Shown here: positions 13,424-44,592 of the stretch, piece by piece
How the letters are laid out: each line of letters starts with the position of its first letter
How positions within the stretch are numbered: position 1 is the stretch's first letter
Origin: Candidatus Reconcilbacillus cellulovorans
Lineage (GTDB): Bacteria > Bacillota > Bacilli > Paenibacillales > Reconciliibacillaceae
Length of the DNA stretch: 64,000 nt
Direction: 5' to 3'
Assembly: GCA_002507565.1 (NCBI GenBank)
Contig: MOXJ01000012.1
Location: forward strand, 1,035-65,034
Program-made: the position numbers and the translations under genes
The notes under the pieces: model-generated
What the model was told of the DNA's origin: nothing
Seen by the model: only the letters and a program-made list of their open reading frames with translations
The model's database searches: none

Positions 13424-13444
13424 TAAAAACGAACGCGTGTTGGG

Positions 13445-13666: not shown

Positions 13667-14381
13667 GGTCCTCACCCTTTTTTCGTCTGGCGATCAGGCG
13701 GTTCAGCTCGCCGAGCGCGTCGCCGAGGCCGCCGACCCGGTCGATCAGCCCGCAGCGGACCGCTTCGGGTCCGATGATCGTCGTGCCGATGTCGCGGGCG
13801 AGTTCGCCGGTCGTAAACATCAACCGTTTCAGCGTTTCCTCGGTTACGCGCGAATGCCGGACGATAAAACGCACAACGCGCTCTTGCATTTTTTCCAGAT
13901 ATTCAAACGTCTGCGGCACACCGATGACGAGACCGTTCAGGCGGATAGGGTGAATCGTCATGGTCGCCGTCTCGGCGATAAAAGACACGTCGCCGCTTAC
14001 GGCGATCGGAACGCCAATGCTGTGACCGCCTCCGAGAACCAGTGTCACCTTGGGCTTCGTCATCGAAGCGACCATCTCCGCAATAGCCAAACCGGCTTCG
14101 ACGTCGCCGCCGACTGTATTGAGCACCACCAATACGCCTTTGATGTTGGGATTCTGTTCGGCCGCCACCAGTTGAGGGATCAGATGCTCGTATTTGGTCG
14201 TCTTGTTTTGGGGAGGCAAGACGAGGTGGCCCTCGACCTGACCGATGACCGTCATGCAAAAAATCGGGGATTCCATAGCGGCGACGGCGGTTTGTCCCAG
14301 CTGGCGGATATGCTCTCCGACGGCGGTCGATTCGACGCCAGGCGCGTTCGGCTCGTCCGATCCGTTCAGTCGTTCATTCAC
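13641..14381 (-). CDS. tepA: ClpP-family protease-like protein TepA (translocation-enhancing protein)
   Basis: 246 aa with a GTG start behind a GAAGGGGGA SD. The sequence [33 protein letters not shown] closely parallels B. subtilis TepA. Confidence 0.88.
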
Positions 14382-22764: not shown

Positions 22765-24945
22765 TCAGCGCCTGCCCGACAGACGCGGTCCCGGGGTCTT
22801 GTGTCCAGGCAGCTTCGGCCCCTGCCCGCGTTGCGGCTGGGAGGGTTTCGGCGGAACGGGCAGCACCGCCTTGCGCGACAGGTTGATGCGTCCTTGCGGG
22901 TCGATTTCGGTCACTTTCACGGTCACCGTGTCGCCGATCGACAGTACGTCTTCGACGCGCGACACGCGTTCATGTGCCAGCTGAGAAATGTGGATGAGCC
23001 CTTCCTTGCCCGGCAATACTTCGACGAACGCGCCGAACTTCTCGATCCGCTTGACGGTCCCGAGATAGGTCTCGCCGACGACGACGTCGCGCACGATCCC
23101 CTCGATGATCTGTTTCGCCTTTTCGTTCATCTCGATGTTCGGAGACGTGATGTAGATCGTGCCGTCCTGCTCGATGTCGATCTTGACGCCGGTTTCTTCG
23201 ATGATCCGGTTGATGATTTTGCCGCCGGCGCCGATGACTTCGCGGATCTTGTCGGGATGGATGCGCATCGTCGTGATTTTCGGCGCATACGGCGAAAGCG
23301 TCTTGCGCGGTTCGGCGATCGTCGCCAGCATTTTATCGAGAATGTAGAGACGACCGACGCGCGCCTGCTCCAACGCTTGCCGCATGATCTCGCGGTCGAT
23401 GCCGGGGATCTTGATGTCCATCTGGATCGCGGTGACGCCTTGAGCGGTCCCGGCGACCTTGAAGTCCATATCGCCGTAATGGTCCTCGAGCCCCTGAATG
23501 TCGGACAAAATCGAAAAACGATCGCCTTCCTTGATCAAGCCCATCGCGATACCGGCGACCGGAGCTTTGATCGGCACGCCCGCGTCCATGAGCGCAAGCG
23601 TGCTGGCACAAATGCTCGCCTGCGACGTCGAACCGTTCGATTCCAGCACTTCGGACACAAGCCGAATCGTATACGGAAACTCGCGTTCCGAAGGAATCAC
23701 CATCTCCAGCGCTCGTTCGCCGAGGGCGCCATGGCCGATTTCGCGCCGGCTGGGCGCACGGATCGGGCGCGCCTCACCGGTGCTAAACGGCGGGAAATTG
23801 TAATGGTGCATGAACCGCTTCGATTCCTCTACGCCGAGGTCGTCGAGAATTTGCATGTCGCCGAGCGCCCCCAGCGTGCAGACGCTGAGCGCTTGCGTCT
23901 GGCCGCGAATAAACAGGCCGGATCCGTGCGTCCGCGGCAAAAGCCCGACTTCGCACTCGATCGGGCGGATTTCGTCGAGCCGGCGGCCGTCCGGCCGGAT
24001 GCGGTCGACAAGAATCATGCGGCGCACTTCGGTTTTGACGATATCATGGAGCACGTCCTTGACATCGGCCAGTTTCTCGGGCGTTTCCGCATACAATTCC
24101 GTGAAATGGGCGATCGTTTCCTGCTGAATGGCGTCGATCGCGTCTTGGCGGGACTGTTTCTCCGGAATGCGCAGCGCCTCGACCAGGCGGTCACCGGCGT
24201 AAGCACGGACCGCAGCATCGACTTCGGGATCGATCTGGCGCTCCGGAACTTCCATTTTCGGCTTGCCGGCCTCGCGGACCAGTTCTTCCTGCAGCTCGCA
24301 GACGCGCTTGACCTCTTCGTGACCGAACATGATCGCCTCAAGCAACACATCTTCAGGAACTTCCCGCGCTTCTCCCTCGACCATCATGATGGCGTCTTTC
24401 GTGCCGGCGACGACGACGAACAAGTCGCACGCCTGCGTCTGCGCCACCGTCGGGTTAATGACGAACTGCCCGTCCACTCTGGCGACGATGACGCCGCCGA
24501 TCGGGCCGTTGAACGGAATGTCCGAAATCGACAGCGCAGCGGATGTGCCGATCATCGCCGCGATTTCCGGAGCGCAGTCTTGGTCGACGCTCAGCACGAG
24601 GTCGACGACTTGCACCTCGTGGCGAAAATGGCTCGGAAACAGCGGTCGGATCGGCCTGTCCGTCAACCGGCTGGCAAGAATCGCCTTCTGGCTGGGCCGT
24701 CCCTCGCGTTTGATGAAACCGCCGGGAATTTTGCCGACGGCATAAAACCGTTCCTCGTAGTTGACCGTCAGTGGAAAAAAGTCGACTTCCTTCGGTTCCT
24801 TCGACGCCGTTACTGTGCATAGCACGGCGGTGTCGCCGTACCGGGCGAGAACGGCAGCGTTGGCCTGTTTCGCCAATCGCCCAGTTTCCAGGACGAGCGG
24901 CCTGCCGGCCAACTCCATGCGCACTTTTTTCTCCGTCGTGTTCAT
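22765..24945 (-). CDS. pnp: Polyribonucleotide nucleotidyltransferase (PNPase)
   Basis: The ORF track extends this gene to 25053, through the rpsO terminator. ATG at 24945 gives [32 protein letters not shown], the typical PNPase start. It has two RNase PH domains plus KH and S1 domains, and a Pro/Lys/Gly-rich C-terminal tail. Confidence 0.95.
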
Positions 24946-24978
24946 CGATTCCGATTTGGCCTCCCGATGCGAAATTGC

Positions 24979-25011
24979 CGGCACCGGTCTGCGCTCGGGC
25001 ACCCGGTGCCG
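24979..25011 (-). other. GC-rich stem-loop in the pnp 5' leader
   Basis: (C)GGCACCGG at 24979-24987 pairs with CCGGTGCC(G) at 25003-25011. This gives a 9-bp stem with a 15-nt loop and no U-tract. It lies between the rpsO terminator and the pnp SD. Confidence 0.35.
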
Positions 25012-25023
25012 TTTCGAGATTTG

Positions 25024-25062
25024 AAAAAAAGCAACCATGGTGGAAAACTCCACGACGGTTGC
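25024..25062 (-). terminator. Rho-independent terminator after rpsO (rpsO-pnp intergenic)
   Basis: The minus strand reads GCAACC-GTC-GTGGA-GTTT-TCCAC-CAT-GGTTGC followed by TTTTTTT, 20 nt after the rpsO TAA. Confidence 0.8.
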
Positions 25063-28093: not shown

Positions 28094-28768
28094 TCATATC
28101 CAAAGGCTGACGTACCACGTTAAAAGCGCCTCGCCCCAGACGAACGCGGCCAACGCGCCCAAGGAGAGAAATGGGCCAAACGGCAAAAATATAGATCGAT
28201 CGCCGCCCGACGCGGCAATCCGGAACAGACCGTACAGACTGCCGGCCGCCGAGGCGAAAAACAAGCACAAGAACGCGAGCTTAAGTCCCAAAACGGAACC
28301 GAGCGCAAACATCATCTTCACGTCGCCGCCGCCGACGCCTTGCCGGCGTCCGAAACGCTCAAACGCCAGCCCGACCGCAAACAACGCCGCCGCTCCGGCC
28401 AACGCGCCGAGAGCGTAATGCCAAAACGGCTCGGGGCGAACGAACAGCCGCAACGCCGCAAACAGCGCCGCAAAAGGAAACACGACGACGTTCAAAATCA
28501 GCCGGCACCTTAGATCCGTCGCCGTACAAACAGCGCAAAAAACGAGAAGTGCCGCTCCGACGACGCGTTCTTCCGTCTCCGATACGGCTGTGAAAATCGC
28601 CCAAAACCAAAAGGCCGTCACCAAACCGACGGCCGTTGTCCAAACCGCTCCGCTTTTTTCTTCATTGCAGTCGTCGCGGAACCGCAAAAGCCGCCTTGCG
28701 ATTTCGTCCGCAGCCGCGCCGATCGCAAAGCCGCCCGCGACGAGGGCCGAACCGACGAAAACCTCCAT
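28094..28768 (-). CDS. pilD: Prepilin peptidase (A24 family), short form without the N-terminal methyltransferase/tetra-Cys region
   Basis: 224 aa, polytopic. The two catalytic Asp motifs are present (CTATDLRCRLI and GGGDVKMMFALG). The first cytoplasmic loop is only about 20 aa and contains a single Cys. Confidence 0.88.
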   Translation of the reverse strand: MEVFVGSALVAGGFAIGAAADEIARRLLRFRDDCNEEKSGAVWTTAVGLVTAFWFWAIFTAVSETEERVVGAALLVFCAVCTATDLRCRLILNVVVFPFAALFAALRLFVRPEPFWHYALGALAGAAALFAVGLAFERFGRRQGVGGGDVKMMFALGSVLGLKLAFLCLFFASAAGSLYGLFRIAASGGDRSIFLPFGPFLSLGALAAFVWGEALLTWYVSLWI

Positions 28769-28792
28769 CCCGCCTTCGCCCTCCGACGCCGC

Positions 28793-29869
28793 TCAGCTGT
28801 CGATCTTCCGTCCGAGCGACTCGCGGGACGAAGAGATCGAAAGCGATTGCGACAGCGCCAAACTTTTTTCCAGCCATGTGTTCAGCTGACGGAAGGTGTC
28901 GATGGGAAGCGAAATCGTTTGTTGGCTGTCGCCGATCGACATCTGAATGATCAGCTCGTTTTCACTTTCGGTGCAGATCGCCCGATAATGTACGGTATTG
29001 CCCTTCCACTCTTCCTGCCATTGGCACATATAACTGCTCGTAAATTGCTTCAACTTTTCATTCCTCCTAAACAGGTTGATAATTTTATTTTCCGTCGCTG
29101 GAATCTGCTCGGACGACTCGGTTTTCGACTCGGTTTGCGTGCTTAGGGTCGCTAGCGGCTCAGGCGCGGTTTCCGGTTCGGCCGCAACGGCCGGTTCCCC
29201 AAAGCCTTCTAGCTCGGGAAGAGCCGGCAATTCCAATTCCTCCTGCTCGCGCCGTTCTATCGTTTCGTCCAACTCGACATCGCTTTCGGCAACTGCCGTC
29301 AACGATTCGTCCAACACTCCGGCATACGCCGCGGGATTCCGTTCGTCGCCTACGCCGCCGGGATCGTCGTTCGTCCCGTCCGCGCCGGCAACACCAACAC
29401 TGGCTTCCGCCGAGGACGAATCAGCGGCTGCGGCCGACGCCGGCCGCGGCAGTTCGATCACGTTGTCGAACTTTTTCATTTCCGCCTGCCGGCGTTTTTC
29501 CAGGGCAGGGATTGCAGTCGTGCGAATTACCTCGTTGACGCGGTCGGGCTTGAAAGGTTTCATCAAATAACCGTTGGCGCCCGCTTTCATGGCGTCGGAA
29601 ATTTGCTCTTGCTGGCTCATCGCCGAACAAACGAGCACGACGGCATGCGGGTCGATCATGCGGATTTCGCGGATCGCCTCGATGCCGTCCATTTCGGGCA
29701 TGGTGATGTCCATAATGATGACGTCGGGTTTCAGTTCCCGGAACAGAGTGACGGCCTGCCTCCCGTTGTCCGCCTCGCCGACGACCTCGTGCCCGGCCTG
29801 GACCAGGATGTCCGTCAACATCTTGCGCATAAACTTGGTGTCGTCGACGACCAACATCCGATACGGCAT
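28793..29869 (-). CDS. CheY-like receiver fused to an acidic linker and an unrecognised C-terminal domain of about 110 aa
   Basis: The ORF track extends this gene to 30034. ATG at 29869 lies 9 nt after AAAGGGG. ATG at 29878 forms an ATGA overlap with the upstream stop codon and is an alternative start. The receiver MPYRMLVVDDTKFMRKMLTDIL...IIMDITMPEMDGIEAIREI...CSAMSQQ...YLMKPF closely resembles B. subtilis CheY. I recognise no motif in the remaining 240 aa. Confidence 0.85.
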   Translation of the reverse strand: MPYRMLVVDDTKFMRKMLTDILVQAGHEVVGEADNGRQAVTLFRELKPDVIIMDITMPEMDGIEAIREIRMIDPHAVVLVCSAMSQQEQISDAMKAGANGYLMKPFKPDRVNEVIRTTAIPALEKRRQAEMKKFDNVIELPRPASAAAADSSSAEASVGVAGADGTNDDPGGVGDERNPAAYAGVLDESLTAVAESDVELDETIERREQEELELPALPELEGFGEPAVAAEPETAPEPLATLSTQTESKTESSEQIPATENKIINLFRRNEKLKQFTSSYMCQWQEEWKGNTVHYRAICTESENELIIQMSIGDSQQTISLPIDTFRQLNTWLEKSLALSQSLSISSSRESLGRKIDS

Positions 29870-29874
29870 CGTCG

Positions 29875-31683
29875 TCATCCCCTTTCTACTTTGGCGACAA
29901 AAATGTTCAGACCTTCCGTTATCGGGATTCCCGTCGGCGGCTGCTCGTACAGCAGGGCGTCGTGATAAATTTGCAGGCGCGACGTTTCGAACGGCAACAC
30001 CTCCTGATCCGGCTGGATGTTGGGTCCCGGCCACGAAGGTCCGGCATATTCGATCGGAGGTTCTCCTCCCATACTCGGCGGCTCGCCGCGCACCGCGTGC
30101 AGTTCGACGGCCGTACCGCCGGGGTTTTCGCCGTGAATCCCTCCGGAAATAAACAGTTTCGACACGACGCCGTACATCTTCACCTGGCGCTTGGAGAATA
30201 GAAAAGCACGGATCTCCGCGTCCGCGTTCCGTTCGTTGGTGTTGTCGCCGAGCACGACGTTACTGGAGGCGACCAACACAAGTGGAATCGGCGTTCCACC
30301 GCTCAGGCCGTTGATCGAGCGCATTCGCTTCAAATCGACATCCCCGTCGACGTAAACCGTGCCGCGCAACCGGATATCGCCGAAAATCGTCAAGTTGCCT
30401 TTAATATACATGCTTCCGTCCGAAAGTTCAAAACCGTCGTTGAAAAACACGTCGCCCTCAATGTATGCGAACTTGTCGGGCGGAAGCACGATCTTTCCCG
30501 AAAGGTCGGCGGCGATTTGCTGGGGCGCGGTCAATTGGACGAAAAGCGATCCGTTCTGCAGTCGAAGCTCCGGCACCCGAGCTCCACCCGTTCGCTGTAA
30601 CCGCAGCGAACCTTCTTTGATAAGAAGATCGGCGCTCGAAGAAGAACTCGTCCCAACCGTCAGCACGCTGCCGTCGATCACAAGTGATGTATTGGAAAAA
30701 CGGACGCTGCCGGAAAGCCAGTCGGTATCGGATGAGACCACATGTTCGAATTCGCCCTCGGGCCAATCCAGATCAAAAGATTGTCCTTCCCGCATCGCAA
30801 AAACGGATGACTTGCGCGCGACATAATCTGCCGGACGCAATTCGGGGTCGTCGGATTCGAGCGATAAATCTTCAAACGGAAACATTTGCGACGAAAAATA
30901 GCCAACGTCGAAATCACGGGACGAATGCGTCGTGCGCGAATACGGACCCGACGTCTCCGACTTAAAAAAGCGATCGCCTCCGGGCGTCCGGCCGTCGACG
31001 CGGATAAACCCCCGCAACGCCGGAAAATCCGATATAAAGCCGTATAACGAACCCGGCGCGCTGATGACCTGCGCCTCGTTGGCAACGCGCAGGTCGCCGT
31101 CGCGTACGAGCACGTCGCCGACGATATACGGCGAGCCGTTCAGCGACAAGTCGCCGCGCGCGCTGACGGGATACCGGAAAACGGGGTGAACCGTTCCGAC
31201 GTAGACCGTCATCGTCTTGGCCACGGATACCGACGGTCGTCGATCGAACGATCCGATCGACCGAACGACGATCTTGCGGACGTAGGGAACGTCGGGATCG
31301 GTCTCCGGACGGCCCGCCGGACTCGACGTTTCGCGGTTTTCCAGCACTTCGAGACGATACTTTCCACTCTGGACGGCGTATTCTTTCCCGTCCCAGGCGT
31401 CGACGGCGTCCAATCTTGAACTTGCCAGCGCGACCGCGTCGCGGTAAACCAGACCGGCGTTGTTGATGTCGTCCGCGACTTTGCGGATTTGGGCCAAGAC
31501 GCGGTCGAGCCCGCTTTGAGCAAGCATTTCCGCCCGAACCGCCGCCTCCGTCGACGCCGTCCGGACGGCGCTTTCTCGAACGACGCCAAGCAAAACAAGT
31601 CCGACGATGCTGATGACCGCCAGGGCAAACAGCGCCACGGCCAACGCCGCACCCGACTCCGAAACTGTCGAACGCCGCGGCAC
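29875..31683 (-). CDS. Large PilX_N/GspK-like minor pilin (602 aa) with a predicted beta-helix-like body
   Basis: GTG start behind a GGGGGGAA SD. The N-terminus SESGAALAVALFALAVISIVGLVLLGVV resembles the PilX N-terminal/GspK hydrophobic segment (no Glu5). The C-terminal part has repetitive GD-x-hydrophobic segments (IEGDVFFNDG, IKGNLTIFGDIRLRGTVYVDGDVDL). Confidence 0.65.
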   Translation of the reverse strand: MPRRSTVSESGAALAVALFALAVISIVGLVLLGVVRESAVRTASTEAAVRAEMLAQSGLDRVLAQIRKVADDINNAGLVYRDAVALASSRLDAVDAWDGKEYAVQSGKYRLEVLENRETSSPAGRPETDPDVPYVRKIVVRSIGSFDRRPSVSVAKTMTVYVGTVHPVFRYPVSARGDLSLNGSPYIVGDVLVRDGDLRVANEAQVISAPGSLYGFISDFPALRGFIRVDGRTPGGDRFFKSETSGPYSRTTHSSRDFDVGYFSSQMFPFEDLSLESDDPELRPADYVARKSSVFAMREGQSFDLDWPEGEFEHVVSSDTDWLSGSVRFSNTSLVIDGSVLTVGTSSSSSADLLIKEGSLRLQRTGGARVPELRLQNGSLFVQLTAPQQIAADLSGKIVLPPDKFAYIEGDVFFNDGFELSDGSMYIKGNLTIFGDIRLRGTVYVDGDVDLKRMRSINGLSGGTPIPLVLVASSNVVLGDNTNERNADAEIRAFLFSKRQVKMYGVVSKLFISGGIHGENPGGTAVELHAVRGEPPSMGGEPPIEYAGPSWPGPNIQPDQEVLPFETSRLQIYHDALLYEQPPTGIPITEGLNIFVAKVERG

Positions 31684-31686
31684 GGT

Positions 31687-32202
31687 TCATTCCCCCCGTC
31701 CTACCGGTATGCGCGAACGGATGTTCAGCACGGGCGACGTCGCGCCGACCGGCCGATACTCCAGATCGATCACCACATGATGATGACCTTCGGCGATCAG
31801 TTTCCCCGAGGAAATTTCAAAAGCAGGTGCAAGCGCGAACACTTTCGGCGGACCGGACGGCATAATCGGATCGACGCGGATTTGCCCGCCGTCGAATCGC
31901 ATTTCATACCAGGCGATATACTGTTTCGGATCCGCAGACGGCTTGACGAACCGAATCGACCGCTGCGTCGTATCGGCCTGTTCGACGTAAATCGCGTCGC
32001 CCAGCTCGGTCACGATGCGGCTGAAAAGCAGGTCGCCCTGGTTGCGCATGGTCGTTTCGATCGTAACGCGCTTGTAGATGGACATCGCCATTAAGACGAA
32101 CGAGTAGATGATCGTCGTCACCATCGTCATGATCATGAGCGCGACCAACGTTTCAAGCAACGTCAGGCCCCGTTCGTCTTTCCGCCGACCGATTCGCCGC
32201 AT
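31687..32202 (-). CDS. Minor pilin with prepilin-type N-terminal cleavage/methylation motif (GspJ/PilW-like)
   Basis: 171 aa. The N-terminus is MRRIGRRKDERG|LTLLETLVALMIMTMV, with Gly at -1, Glu at +5 and a hydrophobic helix. Confidence 0.82.
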   Translation of the reverse strand: MRRIGRRKDERGLTLLETLVALMIMTMVTTIIYSFVLMAMSIYKRVTIETTMRNQGDLLFSRIVTELGDAIYVEQADTTQRSIRFVKPSADPKQYIAWYEMRFDGGQIRVDPIMPSGPPKVFALAPAFEISSGKLIAEGHHHVVIDLEYRPVGATSPVLNIRSRIPVGRGE

Positions 32203-32209
32203 GTTCCGC

Positions 32210-32677
32210 TCATCCTTTCGCGATCATCGCGTCGACATAGGTGGACAGGCGCGGCACGGCGGCGGGAGAAACGGCGCCGGCCTCCGCCCAGAAGACGCGG
32301 ACGGTCATCGCGATCAGCCGTTCGTCCGCGTCCGGCCGCAACACGACCTGATAGCGGTAAGTCGTGCCGTTGATCACCGTATCGTTCAAAAGTCCGGCCA
32401 ACGGGCCGGCAGAAGCGGCGGTGAACGTGGCGGTGCCGGCCGACGCGACATAGGCGCGAAGCGGGTCGTACTCAGCCGGTTTTTTGAACGCCTCGCGGAG
32501 TTCCGCCGCCTTGTACCTCGCCAGATGAACCGCGATCGTCCGACGGTTCTGTTCTGCCGATCGTTCCATTGCCGACAAGATGTAAGCGGCCATCGTCACC
32601 GTCACCACGCTCATGATGATAACGGCGATCAGGATTTCGACCAGGGTCAAGCCGGATTCGCCGCGAAGCCGGCGCAT
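32210..32677 (-). CDS. Minor pilin with prepilin-type N-terminal cleavage/methylation motif (GspI/PilV-like)
   Basis: 155 aa behind a strong GAAAGGAGGGAGA SD. The N-terminus is MRRLRGESG|LTLVEILIAVIIMSVV. Confidence 0.82.
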   Translation of the reverse strand: MRRLRGESGLTLVEILIAVIIMSVVTVTMAAYILSAMERSAEQNRRTIAVHLARYKAAELREAFKKPAEYDPLRAYVASAGTATFTAASAGPLAGLLNDTVINGTTYRYQVVLRPDADERLIAMTVRVFWAEAGAVSPAAVPRLSTYVDAMIAKG

Positions 32678-32717
32678 CGTTTCTCCCTCCTTTCGCGACG
32701 GAAACCGTCATAACGCT

Positions 32718-35096
32718 TCAGTACCGCTTCTGATTGTAATCAAGGTCAACGCGAAGCGGCGTCGGCAGCGTGATCGTGACTCCGTCGTCGTCGACGAGGC
32801 GCAGAAAGACGTAATAAGTTCCCCTCGTCTGTCCGGGAGCTGTCGTCACGCGGAATTTCAGCGCGTTCAGCTTATGCCAGTCGCCCGGTTGCAGCCGTGC
32901 CGCATCGGACTGTGTCGAAACGGCGTAATACATTTCCACGACCCGGAATCCCGGCTGATTGAAACGCGGCGTCACCGGATGCGATGTTCGGACTTCGACG
33001 AGCACCGGCTTATCGCTCGGCGAACCGGGCGAGCTCGGATCGAGCGCGACCAGCGAGCCTTGCGGGCCGGGATTGACGACGAACAACCCGGGACCGGCCT
33101 GCGCACTGCCGCCGGTCGACGTCGCCTCGACGCGGATCCGGTGCCATCCCCACCGAGCGGAAGCATCCGGATATACGTCGCTCAGGCGGAACGACGCCGT
33201 ATAGACGTTGCCGTTTTGTTGAATACCTGAAGCGTCGACGACGAGCGACGGCGACGAAGCGTCGTCCAACCAGACGCGTATGCGCGTGACGGGGCTGCTG
33301 TCTTCCGTGGCGACGACCGTGATCCGGCCGTCGTCCGCCGGCTTCGGAATATCGAACTGGAATGCGACCTGCGGCGGCGTGCTGTCAAGCAACACCGTCT
33401 GCCGGTAGGCGTTGCCGCCGATCGGGAACCCCGCGATCGCATTCGTGACGGCGCGTGCCTCAACCGTGACGGAACCGTCGGGCAACGCGACGGGTCGGCC
33501 GGGCATCCAGTTCGTCCAAACGCCACCGTTTATCCGGTACTGATAACCGGCGATATAATTCGCGCGGAAATCTTCGTTCAAATATTGGGTTTCAGGCGGA
33601 AGACGGCCCGCCGAACCGGAAATCGCGGTCACCTTGCCGGGGCCGAGATGCCAACCGGACGAGAGAATCTGTCCGCCCGCACCGTCGGTGAGCTGAAGCG
33701 ACGGCGCCGTCGGCGTCAACGTCCAACGCTTCACGTCGCCGTTATGGTAGCGCACCGCGACGATCGTGTCGTCGGCGATCCCGTCGCCGGGATCGGCGTC
33801 TTCAAACCAGATGTCCCGCACTCCGCCGGTACCGCTGGCGGGAATACGCCACTGCGCGGCTCCGTCGCCGGCGCGGTAACGCGTCACCGTTCCGTCCGCT
33901 TCGCCGACGTACGTATTACCATAGCGGTCGACGGCACGGACATAGACTTGCACCGATGCACCCAGCTTGATGTTGACCTCGCGCACCTGGCCGCAATCGT
34001 CGAGGTAGCGCACGACAGCGTCGGTCAGAGTATAGTTGCCGGAACCTGGCGGCGGCGTGAGCGAGACGGTCACCGTTTTTTCGGAACCCGGCCCGAACGG
34101 ATAGACGAAACTGCCCAGCACGTCGATGACGACGACGCCGTTTTCCAACCGCACCGTCGACGGATTGTCTCCGGACAGAGAAAAACCGTTCGGCAACGGT
34201 TGGCGAACGACCGTCGACGTAATCGTACCGTTCGACTGGATTTCTTCCGTAATCGCTTCAAATACGCTTTCCAATTCGGAGGTATCGCCGGCCTGATACA
34301 TCTTGCCGCCCGTTTTTTGCGCGATCTGTTGCAGCAAGTTCAGGTCGACATCTTGCGAACCCGGTTGGGCAAGCGCGATCGTATAGACGACAATGTTGCG
34401 GTTTTTCATCGAATCGGCGTCGGCGAGTGCTTCTTGACGGGCTTTTGATTCGTCGTACTTAGCTTTCCCGTCCTTATTGTCCGTATAGTAGTTCGCATAG
34501 CCGTCCGTCAGTAAAATCGCCACGCGCATCCGGTTCTGCGGCGAATTTCTAAGCATTTCTTCTGCCAATGTCAAACCATGGTCGATATTCGTATATCCAT
34601 TTGCATAAAAATTGTTAATTTTGTTCCTTATATCACCGTAATTTGTAGTTAACTGACTTTCAACCGAGGCAGTCGTAGAAAACTTGATCAATCCTACCCG
34701 GTCGCCGGCGTTGGCCGCTTGAATTTTGTCCAGGAGCCGTTTGGAGGCCTTCTTCAGCGCTAGAAGACGGGTATCCTCGCCGGTTTGAGGCCTTTGGTTA
34801 TAAACCCCATAATTCATACTGCCCGACACGTCCAGCACCAACGCGATATCCGCCGGCTGGCGCGACGGCCGCGGCGGCGGCGGGCTGCCCGACGGCGTCA
34901 GCGTATACGTGATACGCACCGTTTCATCGGAAGCGACCGACGATTTTTCGACGACGGCCGTTCCGGTCAATTGAAAGTGCGGCGTGCACGACGGATCGGC
35001 CGCTGCCGCACCGGACGGGACGACGCCGATAAGCGTCATCGCCAGTACCAGCACAAACAAGGCGGGAAACGCCCGATAACGCCGTTTTGCCTTCAT
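32718..35096 (-). CDS. Secreted 792-aa von Willebrand factor A (vWA) domain protein, candidate pilus-associated adhesin
   Basis: It has a Sec signal peptide (MKAKRRYRAFPALFVLVLAMTLIGVVPSGAAAA) and a MIDAS motif (DIALVLDVSGSM at aa 83-94) within a vWA fold of about 190 aa. A long beta-rich C-terminal region follows. I saw no LPxTG and no prepilin motif. Confidence 0.8.
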   Translation of the reverse strand: MKAKRRYRAFPALFVLVLAMTLIGVVPSGAAAADPSCTPHFQLTGTAVVEKSSVASDETVRITYTLTPSGSPPPPRPSRQPADIALVLDVSGSMNYGVYNQRPQTGEDTRLLALKKASKRLLDKIQAANAGDRVGLIKFSTTASVESQLTTNYGDIRNKINNFYANGYTNIDHGLTLAEEMLRNSPQNRMRVAILLTDGYANYYTDNKDGKAKYDESKARQEALADADSMKNRNIVVYTIALAQPGSQDVDLNLLQQIAQKTGGKMYQAGDTSELESVFEAITEEIQSNGTITSTVVRQPLPNGFSLSGDNPSTVRLENGVVVIDVLGSFVYPFGPGSEKTVTVSLTPPPGSGNYTLTDAVVRYLDDCGQVREVNIKLGASVQVYVRAVDRYGNTYVGEADGTVTRYRAGDGAAQWRIPASGTGGVRDIWFEDADPGDGIADDTIVAVRYHNGDVKRWTLTPTAPSLQLTDGAGGQILSSGWHLGPGKVTAISGSAGRLPPETQYLNEDFRANYIAGYQYRINGGVWTNWMPGRPVALPDGSVTVEARAVTNAIAGFPIGGNAYRQTVLLDSTPPQVAFQFDIPKPADDGRITVVATEDSSPVTRIRVWLDDASSPSLVVDASGIQQNGNVYTASFRLSDVYPDASARWGWHRIRVEATSTGGSAQAGPGLFVVNPGPQGSLVALDPSSPGSPSDKPVLVEVRTSHPVTPRFNQPGFRVVEMYYAVSTQSDAARLQPGDWHKLNALKFRVTTAPGQTRGTYYVFLRLVDDDGVTITLPTPLRVDLDYNQKRY

Positions 35097-35131
35097 GAAC
35101 GTTCACCCCTTCTTTCCGCTAAGTTTTCGGT

Positions 35132-36358
35132 TTAAAGTTTCAGCATTCTGGAGATCACGGCAAACGCTTCGGCCCGCGTTAATAGACCGTCCGGGCGGAA
35201 CGTGCCGTCAGGATAACCGCCGATAATCCCTGCAGCGGTCACCCGTGCAAGGCTGTCGCGCAAGCCTTGCGGCAAACCGCCGGTATCGCGGAATGCCAAC
35301 GCGGCCGGTTGCGGCGAAACATTCGCGGATCGCATCGCGGCGTCCGTCCATTGCGCCATTTCGATGCGGCGCATGTATGCGTTCGGTTGGAACAGCGGCG
35401 AAGACGGCGTCGTCGACAAGATCCCTTTCCTCTGAAGCGCTTCGACGATGGAAGAAGCCCAATGATTTTCCAAATCGGTGTACGCTTTCGCCTTAGCTCC
35501 CGCCGCTGCCGAAAGACCGAGCGACCGGGCGAGCAGCGCGGCGAATTCGGCGCGCGTCAGGCGTCCGTCGGGACGGACGGTGCCGTCTTCATATCCTTCG
35601 ATAATCCCGCGTTCCATCAGATCGACGACGACCTCTTTCGCCCAATGGTCGACGATATCCGCGGGAAGACGGCTTAACGCCTTGCGCTTGGTAAGGGCGG
35701 CGGAAAACGCGGGAACTTTCTGCGGTATGTCGTCCTGCCGCCGGATTTCTTGCGGATTCGTATCGGTATCGACGTCGGAATTCCCGAAAACGTCGCCGTA
35801 CAAGCTGAACACCGTGCCTTCACGGACTTTCGGGACGTTTCGGCGCGCCGCCTCGGCATCGGTCGGAATGTCGGCCCATGGCATGACTCCCAGATAGGAG
35901 CGCGTTTTGAACGCTTCTTGGGATTCAGCCGCGAAAAACGAACGGACGGAACTGTCGATATCGGTCACGGCGTAAACGACTTTGCCGCTTGCATCGACCC
36001 ACAGTTCATCCCAGCCTGCTGCCAGATCGTTACCGCTGCGCGAGACGACGCCGGTCCAGACGCGCACATAGGCGGGCCGGTCTTTCGCAGGCGCTTCCAG
36101 CACGACGGCGTACGGATCGGCCGACACGACCGTTCCAGGCGCCCATCCGTCGGTATTGAACGTCGCAGTACGATAAATTTGCAGTCGCTCCTCCGACGGT
36201 TTTCCGCGAGCCTCGGCAAACGGTGAAAAGCTTGCTCCGAACGCTTCTTTCGGCATCGGCCACAGCGCCCACCAAGCCAATAAGGATAAAACGACCGCCC
36301 ACGCCACAACGGCGCAAACCGTCATCCGGTCCCTGCACAACACCGCGGATTTCGTCAT
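35132..36358 (-). CDS. Membrane-anchored protein with three C-terminal S-layer homology (SLH) repeats
   Basis: 408 aa. It has an N-terminal transmembrane segment (CAVVAWAVVLSLLAWWALW) and an unknown domain of about 190 aa. Three SLH-like repeats follow (DIVDHWAKEVVVDLMERGIIEGYEDGTVRPDGRLTRAEFA; YTDLENHWASSIVEALQRKGIL; GLRDSLARVTAAGIIGGYPDGTFRPDGLLTRAEA). The start codon lies 1 nt after the pilT stop. Confidence 0.78.
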   Translation of the reverse strand: MTKSAVLCRDRMTVCAVVAWAVVLSLLAWWALWPMPKEAFGASFSPFAEARGKPSEERLQIYRTATFNTDGWAPGTVVSADPYAVVLEAPAKDRPAYVRVWTGVVSRSGNDLAAGWDELWVDASGKVVYAVTDIDSSVRSFFAAESQEAFKTRSYLGVMPWADIPTDAEAARRNVPKVREGTVFSLYGDVFGNSDVDTDTNPQEIRRQDDIPQKVPAFSAALTKRKALSRLPADIVDHWAKEVVVDLMERGIIEGYEDGTVRPDGRLTRAEFAALLARSLGLSAAAGAKAKAYTDLENHWASSIVEALQRKGILSTTPSSPLFQPNAYMRRIEMAQWTDAAMRSANVSPQPAALAFRDTGGLPQGLRDSLARVTAAGIIGGYPDGTFRPDGLLTRAEAFAVISRMLKL

Positions 36359-36359
36359 G

Positions 36360-37433
36360 TCAATAGCTCTCTCCTTCCCCGACGCTCATTTCGTATTCGC
36401 GAATCACGTCGCGATGAATGAGGCCCGCCTCCGCCAGTTGCCGCAAACTCGCCGACAGCGTCTGCATCCCGTATTGCCGGCCGGTCTGGATGACCGAACG
36501 AATTTGATAAATTTTTTCTTGTCGGATGAGATTGGCGACCGCCGGAGTGTTAACGAGAATTTCCAGAGCTAACACGCGCCCTGTTCCGTCCAATCGCGGA
36601 ACGAGCCTCTGCGACAGAACGCCGAGTAAGACCGAAGCGAGCTGAATCCGGATTTGACGCTGCTGTTCCGTCGGAAACACATCGATGATGCGGTCGACGG
36701 TCTGCGGGGCGTCCGGCGTATGGAGCGTCGCCATGACCAGATGGCCGGTTTCCGCCGCCGTAATGGCGGTCCGGATCGTTTCCAAGTCGCGCATTTCGCC
36801 GACCAGAATGACGTCGGGGTCCTGGCGCAATGCCGCACGCAAGCCATTGGCAAACGACAACGTGTCGACGCCGATTTCCCGCTGGACGATCAGACTCATT
36901 TTATTCTGATGAATATATTCGATCGGGTCTTCCAGCGTGATGATGTGCCTTTTCTGCGTTTCGTTGATATAGTCGACGATGGCGGCGAGCGTCGTCGATT
37001 TGCCGCTGCCCGTCGGCCCGGTGACAAGAAGGAGCCCTTGTTGTTTTTGGGCGAATTCTTTGACGAGCGGGGGCAGCTGCAAGGCATCGATGCTCGGGAT
37101 ACGGCGCGCCAACACGCGAAACGCCATCGCCACCGTCCGGCGCTGGCGGAACACGTTGACGCGGAAATGCCCTACCCCCGGAAGGGAAAACGAAAAATCA
37201 TACTCGCCCTTCCGTAAAAATTGCTGAAACTGCTCTTCCGACATCACTTCCTTGGCCATCCGCAACGTGTCTTCCGCCGTCAGCGGCCTGGTACCGATCC
37301 TTTCCAGCCTGCCGTGCAGACGCAGAAGGGGCTCGATGCCGGCGCTGATGTGCAGGTCGGAAGCTCCGGATTCAAAGGCGGCGGCCAACAGTTCCTTGAC
37401 GGACAATCCCTTGACGGAAACCGGTTGCGCCAT
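36360..37433 (-). CDS. pilT: Type IV pilus retraction ATPase PilT
   Basis: 357 aa with ASDLHI, Walker A (TGPTGSGKSTTLAA), ITLEDPIEY, ILVGEMRDLETI and ATLHT motifs, typical of the PilT family. Confidence 0.92.
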   Translation of the reverse strand: MAQPVSVKGLSVKELLAAAFESGASDLHISAGIEPLLRLHGRLERIGTRPLTAEDTLRMAKEVMSEEQFQQFLRKGEYDFSFSLPGVGHFRVNVFRQRRTVAMAFRVLARRIPSIDALQLPPLVKEFAQKQQGLLLVTGPTGSGKSTTLAAIVDYINETQKRHIITLEDPIEYIHQNKMSLIVQREIGVDTLSFANGLRAALRQDPDVILVGEMRDLETIRTAITAAETGHLVMATLHTPDAPQTVDRIIDVFPTEQQRQIRIQLASVLLGVLSQRLVPRLDGTGRVLALEILVNTPAVANLIRQEKIYQIRSVIQTGRQYGMQTLSASLRQLAEAGLIHRDVIREYEMSVGEGESY

Positions 37434-37448
37434 GCATGCATCGCCCTT

Positions 37449-38108
37449 TCACGGCTCGGGTCCGACGCGAATCGGCATCGGATCGGGGAAAAACGTTTTC
37501 AGGTCAGGCGCATAATACGCGCTCAGCGTCAATTGACAGGTATACAATCGTTTGTCGGCATTCAACTTGACCGGCGGAGCGGCGTCCGCCTGCAGCTCGA
37601 CCCGGTCGATCCGGACGAGCCGCCTCATGGTCTGGATTTCCTCCAGCAACCGCCTGATTTGCGTCCATTCGCCTTTAACCGAGGTTTTCAGCTGAAGCTG
37701 TGCAACCGTTGGAGCCGCCGACGGCCGACCGTTCTCCTGTCCGCCCGTCTGGGAAGCAGGCGTATCGGAACCGGTCGAGACGGGCTGGAAATTGTAGTCC
37801 GAAAACTGAAGACGCGTCACCGACTCCAGCATGCGCAGATCCTGAACGAGCCGGTCGCGGTAAGGCTCTTCCGGAACGGCCTCACGCACCTTTTCCAGTT
37901 CAACGCGGACTCTGCCCGCCGACTGCTGTGCAACATTCGGACGGGCGGTCAGCAGTTGAAATTCTTTGCGTTTTTGTTCCAACTGCGCATTCAGATCGGA
38001 CCGCCGTTCTTGCAGCGGCATGATCCACCATACGTAAACGCCTGCCGCCAGAAGCGCGACGATGACAAACAACCCCCAACGCAAAAGCGGCGTATTCGGC
38101 ACGCTCAC
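37449..38108 (-). CDS. pilO: Type IV pilus assembly protein PilO-like
   Basis: 219 aa with a GTG start in a GTGA overlap with pilN. It has one N-terminal transmembrane segment followed by a coiled coil (LQERRSDLNAQLEQKRKEFQLL). It sits after pilM-pilN. Confidence 0.72.
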   Translation of the reverse strand: MSVPNTPLLRWGLFVIVALLAAGVYVWWIMPLQERRSDLNAQLEQKRKEFQLLTARPNVAQQSAGRVRVELEKVREAVPEEPYRDRLVQDLRMLESVTRLQFSDYNFQPVSTGSDTPASQTGGQENGRPSAAPTVAQLQLKTSVKGEWTQIRRLLEEIQTMRRLVRIDRVELQADAAPPVKLNADKRLYTCQLTLSAYYAPDLKTFFPDPMPIRVGPEP

Positions 38109-38791
38109 GTCCGGCTCGCCCCCCCTTGCGGCGACGCCGTCGGCGTGTTCGCTCCCGTCTGCGGCGCCGGAGTCGGGTTCGGGCTTATACTCGGACTCGG
38201 CGACGGCTGGATAATGCGGATGCGGATCGTCGCTTGTACGACGGGCAGCCAGTCGCCTGCCGGAGAAGCCGGCGCCAACGATGGAGTCGGAAGCGGCACG
38301 CGGGAGACGCCCGTGATCTCTACACCGGCAAACGTCGGTTCCTGCCGCAGCGCTTCCACTCCGCGGACAAGCGCGTCCGCCGTCGCGAAGCCGACCGTCA
38401 CCGTCATTTCTTTGCCGTCAAAGTAAACAAGGCCGTTTAAATTCGAGTAAGCGGGCAGTTTGGCGATTAGCCGATCGAGAACGTCGGTCGCGGACGGACC
38501 ACTGCCGCGAAGGACGGACGGTAATGCAAGCCATTCGGCGACCGTGGTTTCCGATATGGTGTTGTTCCGCGCCTTCAACAACTCGTCGATGCGCGCCTGC
38601 ATCGCATTGAGCTCCGCCTGCGTCGTCCGGACGTCCCGATCGGCGTCGTACCAAAGCCAGCCGGTCACGCCGAACGCGACGACGGCGAACAGCGCCAGAT
38701 ACACGACCCACGGGATCGTCGGCGACGAGGGGGTTCGCGTCAAATCCTGCAACAGATTGATTTCGATGGAACGAAATTTGACGGGTTCCAT
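38105..38791 (-). CDS. pilN: Type IV pilus assembly protein PilN-like
   Basis: 228 aa. The conserved cytoplasmic INLL motif (RSIEINLLQD) is followed by a transmembrane segment and a coiled coil. The C-terminal tail is Pro/Ser-rich. Confidence 0.75.
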   Translation of the reverse strand: MEPVKFRSIEINLLQDLTRTPSSPTIPWVVYLALFAVVAFGVTGWLWYDADRDVRTTQAELNAMQARIDELLKARNNTISETTVAEWLALPSVLRGSGPSATDVLDRLIAKLPAYSNLNGLVYFDGKEMTVTVGFATADALVRGVEALRQEPTFAGVEITGVSRVPLPTPSLAPASPAGDWLPVVQATIRIRIIQPSPSPSISPNPTPAPQTGANTPTASPQGGASRT

Positions 38792-38809
38792 GTCGTGCCC
38801 CTTTCGGCG

Positions 38810-39781
38810 TTACGCCCCTTTCAGCGCCAGACCGATCGCCACCGCATACGGGTCGTACTCCGCGGTGTTTTCGAAAAAAAGATACAACACCCGCTCCATC
38901 GGCAGCGGACGGATCAGCTCGCGGAGCGACTCGTCGAGAAACTCCGGAAGCCGCTTGACTTCCGCATTGTCGAACGCCATGTAAATCCGCCGAATTTCCC
39001 CGTGGTCGGAGGACATCGAATAGCGATAGTAGTTCATCAGCCGGCTCAATTCGATGGACAACGACCGGCCGAACAAAGCCAACGGGTCGCCGCCCTGCTC
39101 CAGCCAGATGTTCCGCGAAGAGCGGAACGAACGGAACAAAACGGGGACGCTGTCGGCGAAAATGCTTACGTCGACGCGCTCGGCTTCGACGTACAGCAAC
39201 ATGAACCTGTCCGGGGCTTCCTCCCCGGTGATCGCCGCGTGCCGAGCGAGCAACCTGAGCAACGCAAGCGGCACGAGATCGACGGCGACCGGCTCGAGTC
39301 CCGCAGAACGGACCGTTCGGACGAGTTCTTCTACGACATCGCGGGGCGTCGCGAAAATGAGCACTTCGTCCTTCCCAGCTTCCGCCGCGGGACCGAGCCT
39401 TACGAAGTCGAATACGGGATTTTGGAACGGCAGCGGCGTTCCCCCGTGCAGGTCGACGTCGATCAAATGCCGCAGTTCGCGGTCTTTAACCGACGGAAAC
39501 GCCGCCTTGCGAAGCGCGACGCTCGACAGCGGAACGGCGACGTTGACGCCGGTTCCGCGCAAATCCGCATCTTTGACCATCGTGCGCAACGCCTCGGCCG
39601 CCGCTTGCGCATCAGCTATGCGCCCTTCGCGCATGCACCCGTCGGGGAGCGGGGCGGAAAATCGCCGGGTGACGGCGACTCTGGAATCGGACGGACGGAT
39701 TTCGACAAGTTTCGCCTCCTGATCCGACAGCGACAGGCCGTAGGCGTACCGGCTTTTTTTCCAGCCCCAGTTGATGCGCAT
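38810..39781 (-). CDS. pilM: Type IV pilus assembly ATPase-fold protein PilM
   Basis: The ORF track extends this gene to 39991, through pilA. ATG at 39781 follows a GAGGAGG SD. The protein is an actin-like fold protein of 323 aa and is immediately followed by pilN. Confidence 0.8.
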   Translation of the reverse strand: MRINWGWKKSRYAYGLSLSDQEAKLVEIRPSDSRVAVTRRFSAPLPDGCMREGRIADAQAAAEALRTMVKDADLRGTGVNVAVPLSSVALRKAAFPSVKDRELRHLIDVDLHGGTPLPFQNPVFDFVRLGPAAEAGKDEVLIFATPRDVVEELVRTVRSAGLEPVAVDLVPLALLRLLARHAAITGEEAPDRFMLLYVEAERVDVSIFADSVPVLFRSFRSSRNIWLEQGGDPLALFGRSLSIELSRLMNYYRYSMSSDHGEIRRIYMAFDNAEVKRLPEFLDESLRELIRPLPMERVLYLFFENTAEYDPYAVAIGLALKGA

Positions 39782-39858
39782 GGCGAACCTCCTCGACGTG
39801 CGTATGGGATGACAGCGGCCGCCCCTGCCGACTGACCAACAGGCGGACCGGGCGAGCG

Positions 39859-39879
39859 GCCGAAAAAGCCGTCTTCGGC
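39859..39879 (-). terminator. Weak candidate terminator/attenuator just after pilA
   Basis: The minus strand reads GCCG-AAGA-CGGC-TTTTT, or alternatively GCCGAA-(9 nt)-TTCGGC, starting 3 nt after the pilA stop. The stem is short, so this could at best be a partial terminator. Confidence 0.3.
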
Positions 39880-39881
39880 GA

Positions 39882-40376
39882 TTACGGCGTGTTGCTCGGT
39901 GACGGCGATGTGCCGCCGCCAATCGACACTGTTTTAATTTCTTCTTCGGTTTTGTTATCAAAGTATTTGGTATTTCCACTAGCATCAACAAGCGTAATAC
40001 GATAGGTCAGACTACCATTGCTTGAATTTTGGGTAACAGTTACTTTAGTTGCTGTTGGATGGTAAGTGCTGTTGTTGGTTCCTTGCGGGTCTTTAGGCTC
40101 TTTGTCCAAATATCCCGCACTTACAATCTGTTCCAGAGTAATTGTTTGCACGTTTCCACCTGTTGTATCGGGATTAAACCCTTCCGTCGTCACTTTAAAC
40201 CGTGCACCGTCAATAATCATTTGGGCATTCGCGCGGTGCGCCTCTTTCTTCGTCTTATTGATAATCCCACCGATCGACGGAATGGCGATCGCCGCAATGA
40301 TCGCCAAGATGACGATAACCGCAAGCAATTCGATCAACGTCAAACCGCGCTGATCGCGGTACAGCCGTTTGAGCAT
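39882..40376 (-). CDS. pilA: Major type IV pilin (prepilin-type N-terminal cleavage/methylation domain)
   Basis: ATG at 40376 follows an AAAGGAGGA SD and gives MLKRLYRDQRG|LTLIELLAVIVILAIIAAIAIPS. The protein is 164 aa with no Cys and has a GGGTSPSPSNTP tail. In-frame upstream ATGs at 40454 (strong GGGAGGTGA SD) and at 40493 (ATGA overlap with pilC) are alternative starts. Confidence 0.88.
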   Translation of the reverse strand: MLKRLYRDQRGLTLIELLAVIVILAIIAAIAIPSIGGIINKTKKEAHRANAQMIIDGARFKVTTEGFNPDTTGGNVQTITLEQIVSAGYLDKEPKDPQGTNNSTYHPTATKVTVTQNSSNGSLTYRITLVDASGNTKYFDNKTEEEIKTVSIGGGTSPSPSNTP

Positions 40377-40489
40377 CGAAAATCGTCCTCCTTTTCCGTT
40401 GGATTCGTGATACTGTCGATTTCGCAACAGCCGTAACCGGCTTCGCTTGTTCATCTCGTTCACCTCCCTTCCGGTGTGTGTTTCGGGTT

Positions 40490-41701: not shown

Positions 41702-41747
41702 CGCGGCCCCTCCTCCGCCCAACGGAAGCAAAACCGTCAGGTTCGCC

Positions 41748-43466: not shown

Positions 43467-43560
43467 CGTCGCCGGCCCCCTTTCGCGCGCGTTCGTTTCA
43501 GGCCGCTCCAATTACACCGCTTGATCCCATTTCGCCGTAAACGGCGGGGGGATGGTGCCG

Positions 43561-44502: not shown

Positions 44503-44538
44503 CGCAACCGTTCCCCCAAAAATCGCCTTCGCAATCGT

Positions 44539-44583: not shown

Positions 44584-44592
44584 AGCTGTCTG

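Follow-up and report, generated by a model that had tools for sequence, protein, structure and literature searches.

The gene at positions 28793-29869 on the minus strand of a 64,000-nucleotide (nt) stretch of Candidatus Reconcilbacillus cellulovorans DNA (contig MOXJ01000012.1; the whole stretch is referred to here as the window) lies in a cluster of type IV pilus (T4P) genes. Its 358-residue product, for which the working name CheY-X is used, has three parts: a CheY-class receiver, an acidic disordered linker and a C-terminal domain (CTD). CheY-X is a conserved component of the T4P operon, being found at 17 genome loci, at the loci designated L037, L038, L040 and L042, and in four pairs with a gene for the extension ATPase PilB. 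The preferred interpretation, to which a probability of about 0.5 is assigned, is that CheY-X acts as a phospho-switch on the pilus motor, where its CTD would dock, most probably to PilB, and that a separately made CTD would be its competitor or its partner.

In the proposed mechanism, D54 of the receiver, a CheY paralogue, would be phosphorylated by a kinase whose gene lies elsewhere, the flagellar CheA being the likeliest. The small acidic CTD would dock the protein on the pilus machine, most probably at the MshEN-type PilB, with the long acidic linker tethering the receiver to the docking site, and the phosphorylation state would modulate pilus extension beside the cyclic di-GMP (c-di-GMP) input expected of the MshEN domain. 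A conserved internal ribosome-binding site and start codon would probably also yield the free CTD, which could compete or pair with the full-length protein. The complete chain, in which one gene makes two proteins, the tethered and free CTD compete or pair on PilB, phosphorylation by CheA sets extension and chemotaxis steers a Gram-positive T4P, is distinctly unlikely to hold in every link.

The receiver, the linker and the C-terminal domain

In the list of open reading frames (ORFs) the CheY-X gene comprises 358 codons and a TGA stop at 28795-28793. The longest reading of the ORF opens at GTG 30034 on the minus strand, and the best-supported start is ATG 29869 (MPYRMLVVDD). A Shine-Dalgarno (SD) sequence, GAAAGGGG, is found at 29886-29879 (minus strand), 9 nt 5' of this ATG, and the closest homologues, such as one opening with MSYRMLVVDD, have their N-termini at this position. 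Because of this spacing and these N-termini, ATG 29869, which was also the start used in the initial annotation of this DNA, is almost certainly the true one. A second possible ATG, at 29878 on the same strand, shares the sequence ATGA (29875-29878) with the stop of the upstream gene and was chosen by one gene caller, giving a 361-residue product (P0033). Translational coupling through this overlap is possible; the SD spacing nonetheless favours ATG 29869. A gene of identical sequence has been called on 24 contigs.

The receiver occupies residues 1-120 (29510-29869, minus strand). The sole Pfam domain of CheY-X is Response_reg (PF00072), which matches residues 6-115 with an E-value of 9e-31 and 106.7 bits (cut-off 30.2). 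The receiver begins at residue 4-6, with nothing N-terminal to it. The key residues D9, D10, D54, S82, Y101 and K104 are present, as is every one of the motifs quoted in the initial annotation (MLVVDD, IIMDITMPEMDG, CSAMS and KPF). In an alignment of 82 sequences, the window protein included, D9, D10 and K104 are kept in all, D54 and S/T82 in 79 each and Y101 in 80. From this conservation of the active site, the family is expected to be phosphorylatable.

The top eight matches of CheY-X among sequences in the PDB are all CheY proteins, the best being Thermotoga maritima CheY (1TMY; E 1.5e-42, 147 bits, 66 of 114 residues or 58% identical). NarL-type receivers (VraR, NarL) and an OmpR-type receiver (MtrA) score only 66-75 bits, and the earlier view that this receiver is closer to CheY than to OmpR or NarL is therefore correct. 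The best NCBIfam model is again a CheY model, NF041367 (CheY_Halo), which gives 125.8 bits and so lies under its equivalog cut-off of 200; NF007901 (PRK10610) gives 65.7 bits against an equivalog cut-off of 189. By these sequence scores the receiver is of the CheY class yet not a CheY equivalog. Flagellar CheY of the Thermotoga/Bacillus type has the same active-site and switch residues. It is, however, a single domain of about 120 residues encoded in the fla/che operon, whereas CheY-X is three times longer and is encoded in a pilus operon, with fla/che elsewhere. A GerE/LuxR helix-turn-helix (HTH) does not follow the receiver, PF00196 being unmatched in CheY-X at E<=1 and in 35 CTD sequences at E<=10.

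Residues 121-259 (29093-29509, minus strand) form an acidic, Ala/Glu/Pro-rich linker predicted to be intrinsically disordered. It has a pI of 4.2 and 22% D+E, and single-sequence AlphaFold2 placed no secondary structure in it, the predicted local distance difference test score (pLDDT) staying below 50. The composition had been described correctly before; the length, earlier put at about 130 residues, is approximately 140-150. Across the family the linker varies from 55 to 343 residues; with few exceptions it is strongly acidic, pI values typically being 4.05-4.5 and D+E making up 17-34%. Many homologues with long linkers (eg L008-L021, P0004, P0014 and P0045) share the motif (L/I)S(L/I)(D/E)(D/E)L(N/Q)(D/E)(L/I)T, which may be a short linear binding motif. 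It is missing from the window protein and its closest relatives.

The C-terminal part begins with a conserved lead-in, ENKIINLFRRNEK, at residues 260-272 (29054-29092, minus strand), defined by the family alignment and modelled with low to medium pLDDT. It includes the residues KIINLFR, would be present only in the full-length product and contains the internal SD described below. The CTD core follows at residues 273-340 (28850-29053) and the C-terminal tail, QSLSISSSRESLGRKIDS, at residues 341-358 (28796-28849), both on the minus strand; the tail is of low confidence (pLDDT 57-72), and many homologues end in a loosely conserved R-E-x-x-K-K-A-D/E. A C-terminal domain of about 110 residues had been proposed here; the folded core in the model is shorter, at about residues 276-340.

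Single-sequence AlphaFold was uninformative for the CTD (mean pLDDT 50). AlphaFold2 with an alignment of 26 sequences gave a model with a mean pLDDT of 83, in which the ten-residue blocks covering residues 279-338 (model residues 21-80; protein residue = model residue + 258) score 95-98. The model consists of four antiparallel strands, at residues 279-288, 291-300, 305-312 and 315-322 (model 21-30, 33-42, 47-54 and 57-64), and a helix at residues 323-353 (model 65-95). The CTD is thus not predicted to be wholly disordered. The helix covers one face of the sheet and the other face is open, an arrangement which suits a protein-protein or dimerisation module. Within the domain W284 and W332 are invariant and C282, E286, E301 and L329 nearly so. 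All 83 proteins scored have an acidic CTD core (median pI 4.7, maximum 6.7), and this argues against nucleic-acid binding. On the model and this composition, a role in protein-protein docking or dimerisation is inferred for the CTD.

Searches of the libraries returned no relative of the domain. In Pfam the CTD of the window protein had no match at E<=1, and 35 family members gave only scattered noise at E<=10, with no PilZ, HTH or PH-type match. NCBIfam had nothing on the CTD, and a profile search of PDB sequences returned only villin, at E 1.2. With Foldseek, the model had no match at E<0.001 in the PDB and BFVD. The best-shaped matches were likewise units of four strands and a helix, namely PUR repeats (target-normalised TM scores of 0.45-0.59), the CCDC61 head domain and PsbP; the E-values of the PUR-type matches were 0.08-0.3, which is not significant. 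These likenesses are read as a simple topology held in common and not as homology, and the acidity of the domain counts further against a PUR/Whirly-like fold. The initial annotation had recognised no known motif, no HTH and no convincing PilZ RxxxR or DxSxxG, and the libraries and alignment agree with it; no well-known output domain was found by structure comparison either. The CTD is a small domain family covered by no library, and as such a handle for interaction, structural and genetic work.

Word-indexed searches with the CTD alone or with the CTD alignment recovered only fragments, so that an exhaustive phmmer search was needed. The last 117 residues of CheY-X were compared with 1.84 billion cluster representatives, giving 29 matches, of which 27 are genuine clusters at 50% identity. 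The other two, P0003 (4133 residues, E 1e-26) and P0017 (2311 residues, E 8e-10), are giant cadherin-repeat adhesins and were rejected as spurious. Their scores came from 8-9 weak repeated stretches and the family profile misses both, a case in which summed repeat scores can mislead. A full-length search together with profile scoring brought the number of sequences carrying the CTD to approximately 95, of which 81 are full-length with an N-terminal receiver, and in every one the CTD is at the extreme C-terminus. A metagenome scan with a narrower alignment added one locus, L042. The named sources are Paenibacillus, Cohnella, Marinicrinis, Gorillibacterium, Alkalihalobacillus and Pseudalkalibacillus, and among the sequences found the family appears restricted to the Bacillales (Paenibacillaceae and some Bacillaceae). 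Database annotations call its members "response regulator", "CheY-like" or, wrongly, "NarL/FixJ". No independent CTD gene was found among the family entries; the short ones are fragments or remnants. Two candidates for a stand-alone CTD gene were rejected, P0018 coming from a contig of 434 nt and P0031 being a remnant at a site where pilB and the receiver-coding sequence have been lost.

A candidate internal start and the base composition of the domain

The boundary between the lead-in and the CTD core carries a possible translation signal. The window sequence here is TTT AGG AGG AAT GAA AAG TTG AAG CAA TTT, in which the SD-like AGGAGG (29063-29068, minus strand) encodes Arg268-Arg269 and is followed, after a 9-nt spacer, by an in-frame TTG at codon 273 (29051-29053, minus strand). 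Initiation at this TTG would yield a protein of 86 residues, the CTD alone. The duplex energy of the AGGAGG with the anti-SD is -10.2 kcal/mol, compared with a median of -10.8 kcal/mol for true starts in the window.

The same site recurs in homologous genes. In 21 of the 25 genes with available DNA an ATG, GTG or TTG, with an SD-like motif before it, is found exactly nine codons upstream of the conserved Cys, in line with the window gene. These are the genes of loci L007-L021, L027, L028, L035, L036, L040 and L042; in L020, which has a duplication of three codons, a start codon is found twelve codons upstream of that Cys. The SD-like motifs are AGGGGG, AGAGGAGGA, AGGAGG or TGGAGGA, lie 4-9 nt before the start codon and have duplex energies of -9.3 to -12.3 kcal/mol. 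Each gene has 14-44 in-frame start codons, among which this site ranks first to fourth, and no other in-frame start site was positionally conserved among the genes compared. There are four exceptions. L034, a decaying locus, has no candidate site, and L038 has a TTG without an SD. L033 has an ATG with an SD ten codons upstream of the first conserved Phe of the domain. L037 has an ATG without an SD and a further ATG, with GGGAGGA, 37 codons upstream.

The residues encoded over the SD motif vary (RR, RG, RGG or WR), as does that at the start codon (M, V or L), while the nucleotides are conserved. The codons used are also locally rare. Only 9.9% of Arg codons in the window are AGR, and the probability of AGG AGG given Arg-Arg is 0.0035; over 15 representative genes the probability of the codon choice given the amino acids is 0.001-0.02, except in L027 (0.09), where one Arg codon is involved. 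Since the amino acids differ where the nucleotides are kept, and the codons are rare, the constraint appears to act on the nucleotides. This suggests selection for an internal ribosome-binding site and hence a separately translated free CTD. Alternatively, the SD-like sequence may act as a pause site, or selection may have retained it from an older arrangement in two genes. A promoter scan of the cluster found no promoter-like site on the minus strand inside the CheY-X gene.

Escherichia coli CheA provides an analogy, in that one ORF gives both the full-length CheA-long and, from an internal ribosome-binding site, the C-terminal isoform CheA-short. The CheY-X case is predicted from conservation of the sequence, and its short product would be the output domain alone. 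If the internal start is real, a single ORF would compactly encode a signalling protein together with a free version of its output domain.

The DNA encoding the CTD is AT-rich, and a hand count of 109 G+C in 240 nt at 28861-29100 had been taken as the sign of a grafted module. The count is exact, and just 0.9% of 240-nt segments across the 64 kb reach such an AT content; the interpretation is not supported. GC at codon positions 1 and 2 is 0.40 and 0.37 in the patch, compared with 0.59 and 0.41 in the whole gene, while GC at the third position is 0.62 against 0.67-0.79 in neighbouring genes, a difference within sampling noise for 85 codons. As the drop lies in the first two codon positions, it reflects amino-acid composition; such a patch is to be expected of a domain with many K, N, I, E, Q, S and T residues when the genome has 60% GC. 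A recent horizontal graft of the CTD was rejected on these values together with the receiver-linker-CTD architecture common to the family. Over 80 proteins of several genera have that architecture, and the fusion is therefore old.

The pilus motor, a possible kinase and competing explanations

CheY-X is encoded by the second-to-last gene of an uninterrupted minus-strand string running from pilB to pilD. The stop codon of the preceding gene, which encodes a 602-residue protein (p602; 29875-31683), lies 5 nt before the CheY-X start, and pilD (28094-28768) begins 24 nt after its stop. The gene thus lies between p602 and pilD, its description as encoded inside the pilus operon holds, and the co-location is kept across genera. 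The order PilM-N-O-T-SLH-VWA-pilin-pilin-p602-CheYX-PilD is kept in 17 genomes (Paenibacillus, Marinicrinis, Gorillibacterium and metagenome-assembled genomes), in the metagenome locus L040 and, as far as its DNA reaches, in L042. L038, likewise a metagenome locus, keeps the order without pilT or pilD. In L037 the cluster is rearranged (PilB-PilT-PilC-pilin-PilD-PilM-PilN-gene), with CheY-X as its last gene.

Smaller arrangements point to one component of the pilus machine. In L033 (Alkalihalobacillus), L034 (Pseudalkalibacillus) and L036 an ATPase with MshEN and T2SSE domains is the sole pilus-type gene within 10 kb and ends 4-92 nt upstream of CheY-X; in L034 it is split into two. The ATPase/CheY-X pair of L035 (Cohnella luojiensis) follows a Tad cluster. 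The window PilB (41748-43511, minus strand; Pfam T2SSE, E 3e-137, and MshEN, E 1.5e-21) shares 42-50% of its residues, along the entire protein, with the pair ATPases of L033, L035 and L036 and with the PilB of L037; for the pair ATPases, which are full-length PilB homologues, the range is 42-49%. The flanks of the pairs differ between loci, so that the pair behaves as a mobile two-gene unit. On this comparison of loci the extension ATPase PilB is most likely the target of CheY-X, rather than extension and retraction generally.

PilB itself probably has an input of its own, to which phosphorylation through CheY-X would add a second. Its N-terminus (approximately 43470-43300, minus strand) reads MRLGELLVMNGLITESQLEEAIRVQ-ADTKK-KLGHILVERGWITERQLVEVLEFQ, in which two relaxed 24-residue MshEN c-di-GMP motifs are separated by the canonical spacer of five residues; the motif used for comparison was taken from PMC5013675. 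With two such motifs the motor probably senses c-di-GMP directly. The listed start of the PilB ORF, a TTG 15 codons upstream, is probably too long.

The cluster (28.1-45.4 kb) encodes no histidine kinase, as had been noted before, and none was seen among the large ORFs checked at 0.8-21.6 kb. A contig with an identical CdsA, from another assembly of the same or a near-identical strain, runs past the window end through rpsB, sigD, cheD, cheC, cheW and cheA. That cheA lies approximately 10 kb beyond position 64000, and its product has Hpt, P2, dimerisation, ATPase and CheW domains. Genes for methyl-accepting chemotaxis proteins (MCPs) are found at two of the homologous clusters. In L040 one such gene (11965-14234) directly follows pilD, and flgB, with which the fla/che operon opens, comes next; beside the cluster of L038 lies another (11647-14142; MCPsignal and a solute-binding domain). 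CheA is favoured because of the CheY-class receiver, the nearby cheA and these MCP genes, and as the kinase of CheY-X it is likely but far from established. If CheA is the kinase, the finding bears on how one chemosensory array might serve flagella as well as pili within a single cell.

The PatA-type regulators of Synechocystis appear to be the closest functional precedent; they bind PilB1 and PilC through a non-receiver domain, PATAN, which is the output (bioRxiv 10.1101/2021.06.11.447907). Like CheY-X, these proteins (PixE, PixG and others) have a chemotaxis-derived CheY-like receiver fused to an extra domain that does not bind DNA, and the logic would be the one proposed here, with the receiver as switch and the other domain docked on the motor. 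They differ from CheY-X in several respects. The extra domain of the PatA type is N-terminal, whereas the CTD is C-terminal and nothing precedes the receiver; PATAN is about twice the size of the CTD of approximately 70 residues, which is unrelated in sequence and modelled as four strands and a helix. The CheY-X family adds the long acidic linker between the domains, its gene comes without a dedicated operon of Tax-like kinase or MCP, and the host lineage is the Bacillales. PilG and PilH of the Pseudomonas Pil-Chp system are also CheY-like receivers that link a chemosensory kinase to T4P (PMC11656802). Those have a single domain each, and the genes for a dedicated kinase, ChpA, and receptor, PilJ, accompany theirs; CheY-X instead has an added output domain and lies in a structural pilus operon with no kinase nearby. 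PilZ and FimX of Xanthomonas and Pseudomonas are small accessory proteins which bind the extension ATPase and convey a signal input to it (PMC11656802). Binding of this kind is the role proposed for the CTD, which however has no PilZ, GGDEF or EAL domain, and the input would be phosphorylation rather than c-di-GMP.

CheY-X is accordingly described as a receiver-domain protein and a conserved pilus-operon component; it is not a CheY equivalog, a NarL/FixJ regulator, a PilZ protein or a member of the PatA type. The class to which it belongs, CheY-like regulators of T4P, is known. What is new is the output domain, the restriction to the Bacillales, the tight link to an MshEN-type PilB and the apparent dual translation. 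Literature searches turned up no account of a CheY fusion linked to Gram-positive pili. A recent review of PilB control lists cofactors from Gram-negatives only, plus the c-di-GMP riboswitch and MshEN inputs in clostridia (PMC11656802). Regulation of Gram-positive T4P is little known, and the CheY-X family, which is conserved, offers a concrete candidate for the phospho-signalling input that has been missing.

Several observations weigh against the phospho-switch on PilB. The evidence for PilB as partner is gene neighbourhood throughout, and in the window CheY-X is not adjacent to pilB but 12 kb from it in the same gene string. In Pseudalkalibacillus, L034 (8500-9969) is decaying, with PilB split into an MshEN ORF and an ATPase ORF, and at the syntenic site in L039 (6001-6255) a CTD remnant of 84 residues is all that is left; from their degraded look some of the isolated pairs could be leftovers of larger clusters. 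The receiver falls short of both NCBIfam CheY equivalog cut-offs. The fold of the CTD was modelled from 26 sequences, with no structural relative to anchor its function. Paenibacilli have many orphan kinases and MCP genes, which makes the link to CheA circumstantial.

CheY-X could instead be a polarity or localisation scaffold of the RomR/FrzS type, its CTD binding a landmark or an alignment-complex protein (PilM, PilC or a pole factor) in place of PilB, and its receiver recruiting further factors, so that it would decide where pili are built, not how fast. Most CheY-X loci adjoin the minor pilins, p602 and PilD or follow PilMNO, rather than PilB. In overall layout, with the receiver followed by a long low-complexity linker and an acidic C-terminus that is short and conserved, CheY-X resembles RomR of Myxococcus xanthus, which controls the polarity of motility machines including T4P and has an N-terminal receiver, a Pro-rich low-complexity linker and a Glu-rich acidic C-terminus (PMC12719032). 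The resemblance in layout is treated as an analogy only. The linker of RomR is proline-rich and RomR acts through RomX, MglA and MglB; neither the window nor the loci examined showed homologues of these three. The searches turned up no sequence similarity between the two C-terminal regions, though the RomR sequence itself was not compared, and that of RomR is not known to be a folded domain of sheet and helix. In the isolated two-gene modules the sole pilus-type neighbour is PilB. A scaffold is for these reasons considered unlikely, though it deserves some weight.

The likeness of the receiver to flagellar CheY, with Y101 and K104 of the switch kept, also allows a role as a phosphate sink or in cross-talk between pili and flagella, in which the CTD would park a CheY paralogue at the pilus machine, where it would drain phosphoryl groups from CheA or compete for FliM and so alter swimming. 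A CheA with a P2 domain is encoded in the same genomic region, the T4P cluster and MCP gene of L040 abut the start of the fla/che operon, and PilH has been discussed as a possible sink in Pseudomonas (PMC11656802). A sink, however, needs no conserved output domain, and the CTD is the most family-specific and best-conserved part of CheY-X, with its own apparent translation start. The isolated PilB/CheY-X pairs likewise favour an effect on the ATPase, and a sink or cross-talk role is regarded as quite improbable.

It is very doubtful that CheY-X is a transcription factor whose CTD is a new PUR- or Whirly-like nucleic-acid-binding domain autoregulating the pilus operon. PUR repeats are among the best-shaped Foldseek matches and some family members carry the JGI label "DNA-binding NarL/FixJ family response regulator". 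Those matches are not significant, the JGI names are automatic and based on the receiver alone, there is no HTH or GerE domain, and an acidic CTD in all 83 proteins with a linker pI near 4.1 is unfavourable for contact with nucleic acids. That the CTD is a degenerate PilZ-like domain or other small-molecule binder, integrating c-di-GMP with phosphorylation, is hardly credible: PilZ domains, classical cofactors of PilB, also end in a helix after beta structure (PMC11656802) and some family members have a conserved Arg immediately ahead of the CTD, but PF07238 was unmatched in 35 members even at E<=10, neither RxxxR nor D/NxSxxG occurs in the alignment, four strands are modelled instead of a six-strand barrel, the core has no conserved basic residues, and PilB already has an MshEN site for c-di-GMP.

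Other genes of the cluster and its surroundings

The remaining genes of the string are all on the minus strand and were assigned by Pfam unless stated otherwise. Downstream of pilB follow pilC (40490-41731; T2SSF), a pilin gene (39882-40493; N_methyl), pilM (38810-39991; PilM_2), pilN (38105-38791; assigned by position and from homologous loci) and pilO (37449-38108; T2SSM_b/PilO). The retraction ATPase PilT (357 residues; 36360-37433; T2SSE, E 7e-53) is 70-74% identical to its counterparts in homologous clusters. Between pilT and the genes for two minor pilins (32210-32677 and 31687-32202) lie genes for an SLH-domain protein of 408 residues with three C-terminal SLH repeats (35132-36358) and a VWA-domain protein of 792 residues (32718-35096). 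These two genes are conserved members of the operon, and their products may serve, specifically in this type of Gram-positive pilus, as an anchor to the cell wall and as a component of the tip or an adhesin. The p602 protein matches no Pfam family; it opens with a hydrophobic pilin-like segment, is 30-41% identical in all homologous clusters and is perhaps a PilY/PilX-like protein, or else a minor pilin of large size. The prepilin peptidase PilD (Peptidase_A24, E 6e-16) has an SD and an ATG in the sequence.

An Rfam search of the whole 64 kb gave no family at gathering score, and in particular no c-di-GMP riboswitch upstream of the pilus genes such as is known in Clostridioides difficile. Promoter-like sites in the cluster numbered 11, against 5.3 ± 2.5 in shuffled sequences, and terminator-like sites 32, against 26.8 ± 5.3; these counts are uninformative. 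Together with a VanW-like gene and a LuxR-type (GerE) gene of 279 codons upstream of pilB, the pilus cluster spans 28094-45432. It sits between ribF (45552) and rpsO/pnp (22765-25053), in the nusA-infB-truB-ribF-rpsO-pnp housekeeping stretch of the Bacillales, and a LysM-M14 peptidase gene and a GH8 gene are found between pilD and rpsO.

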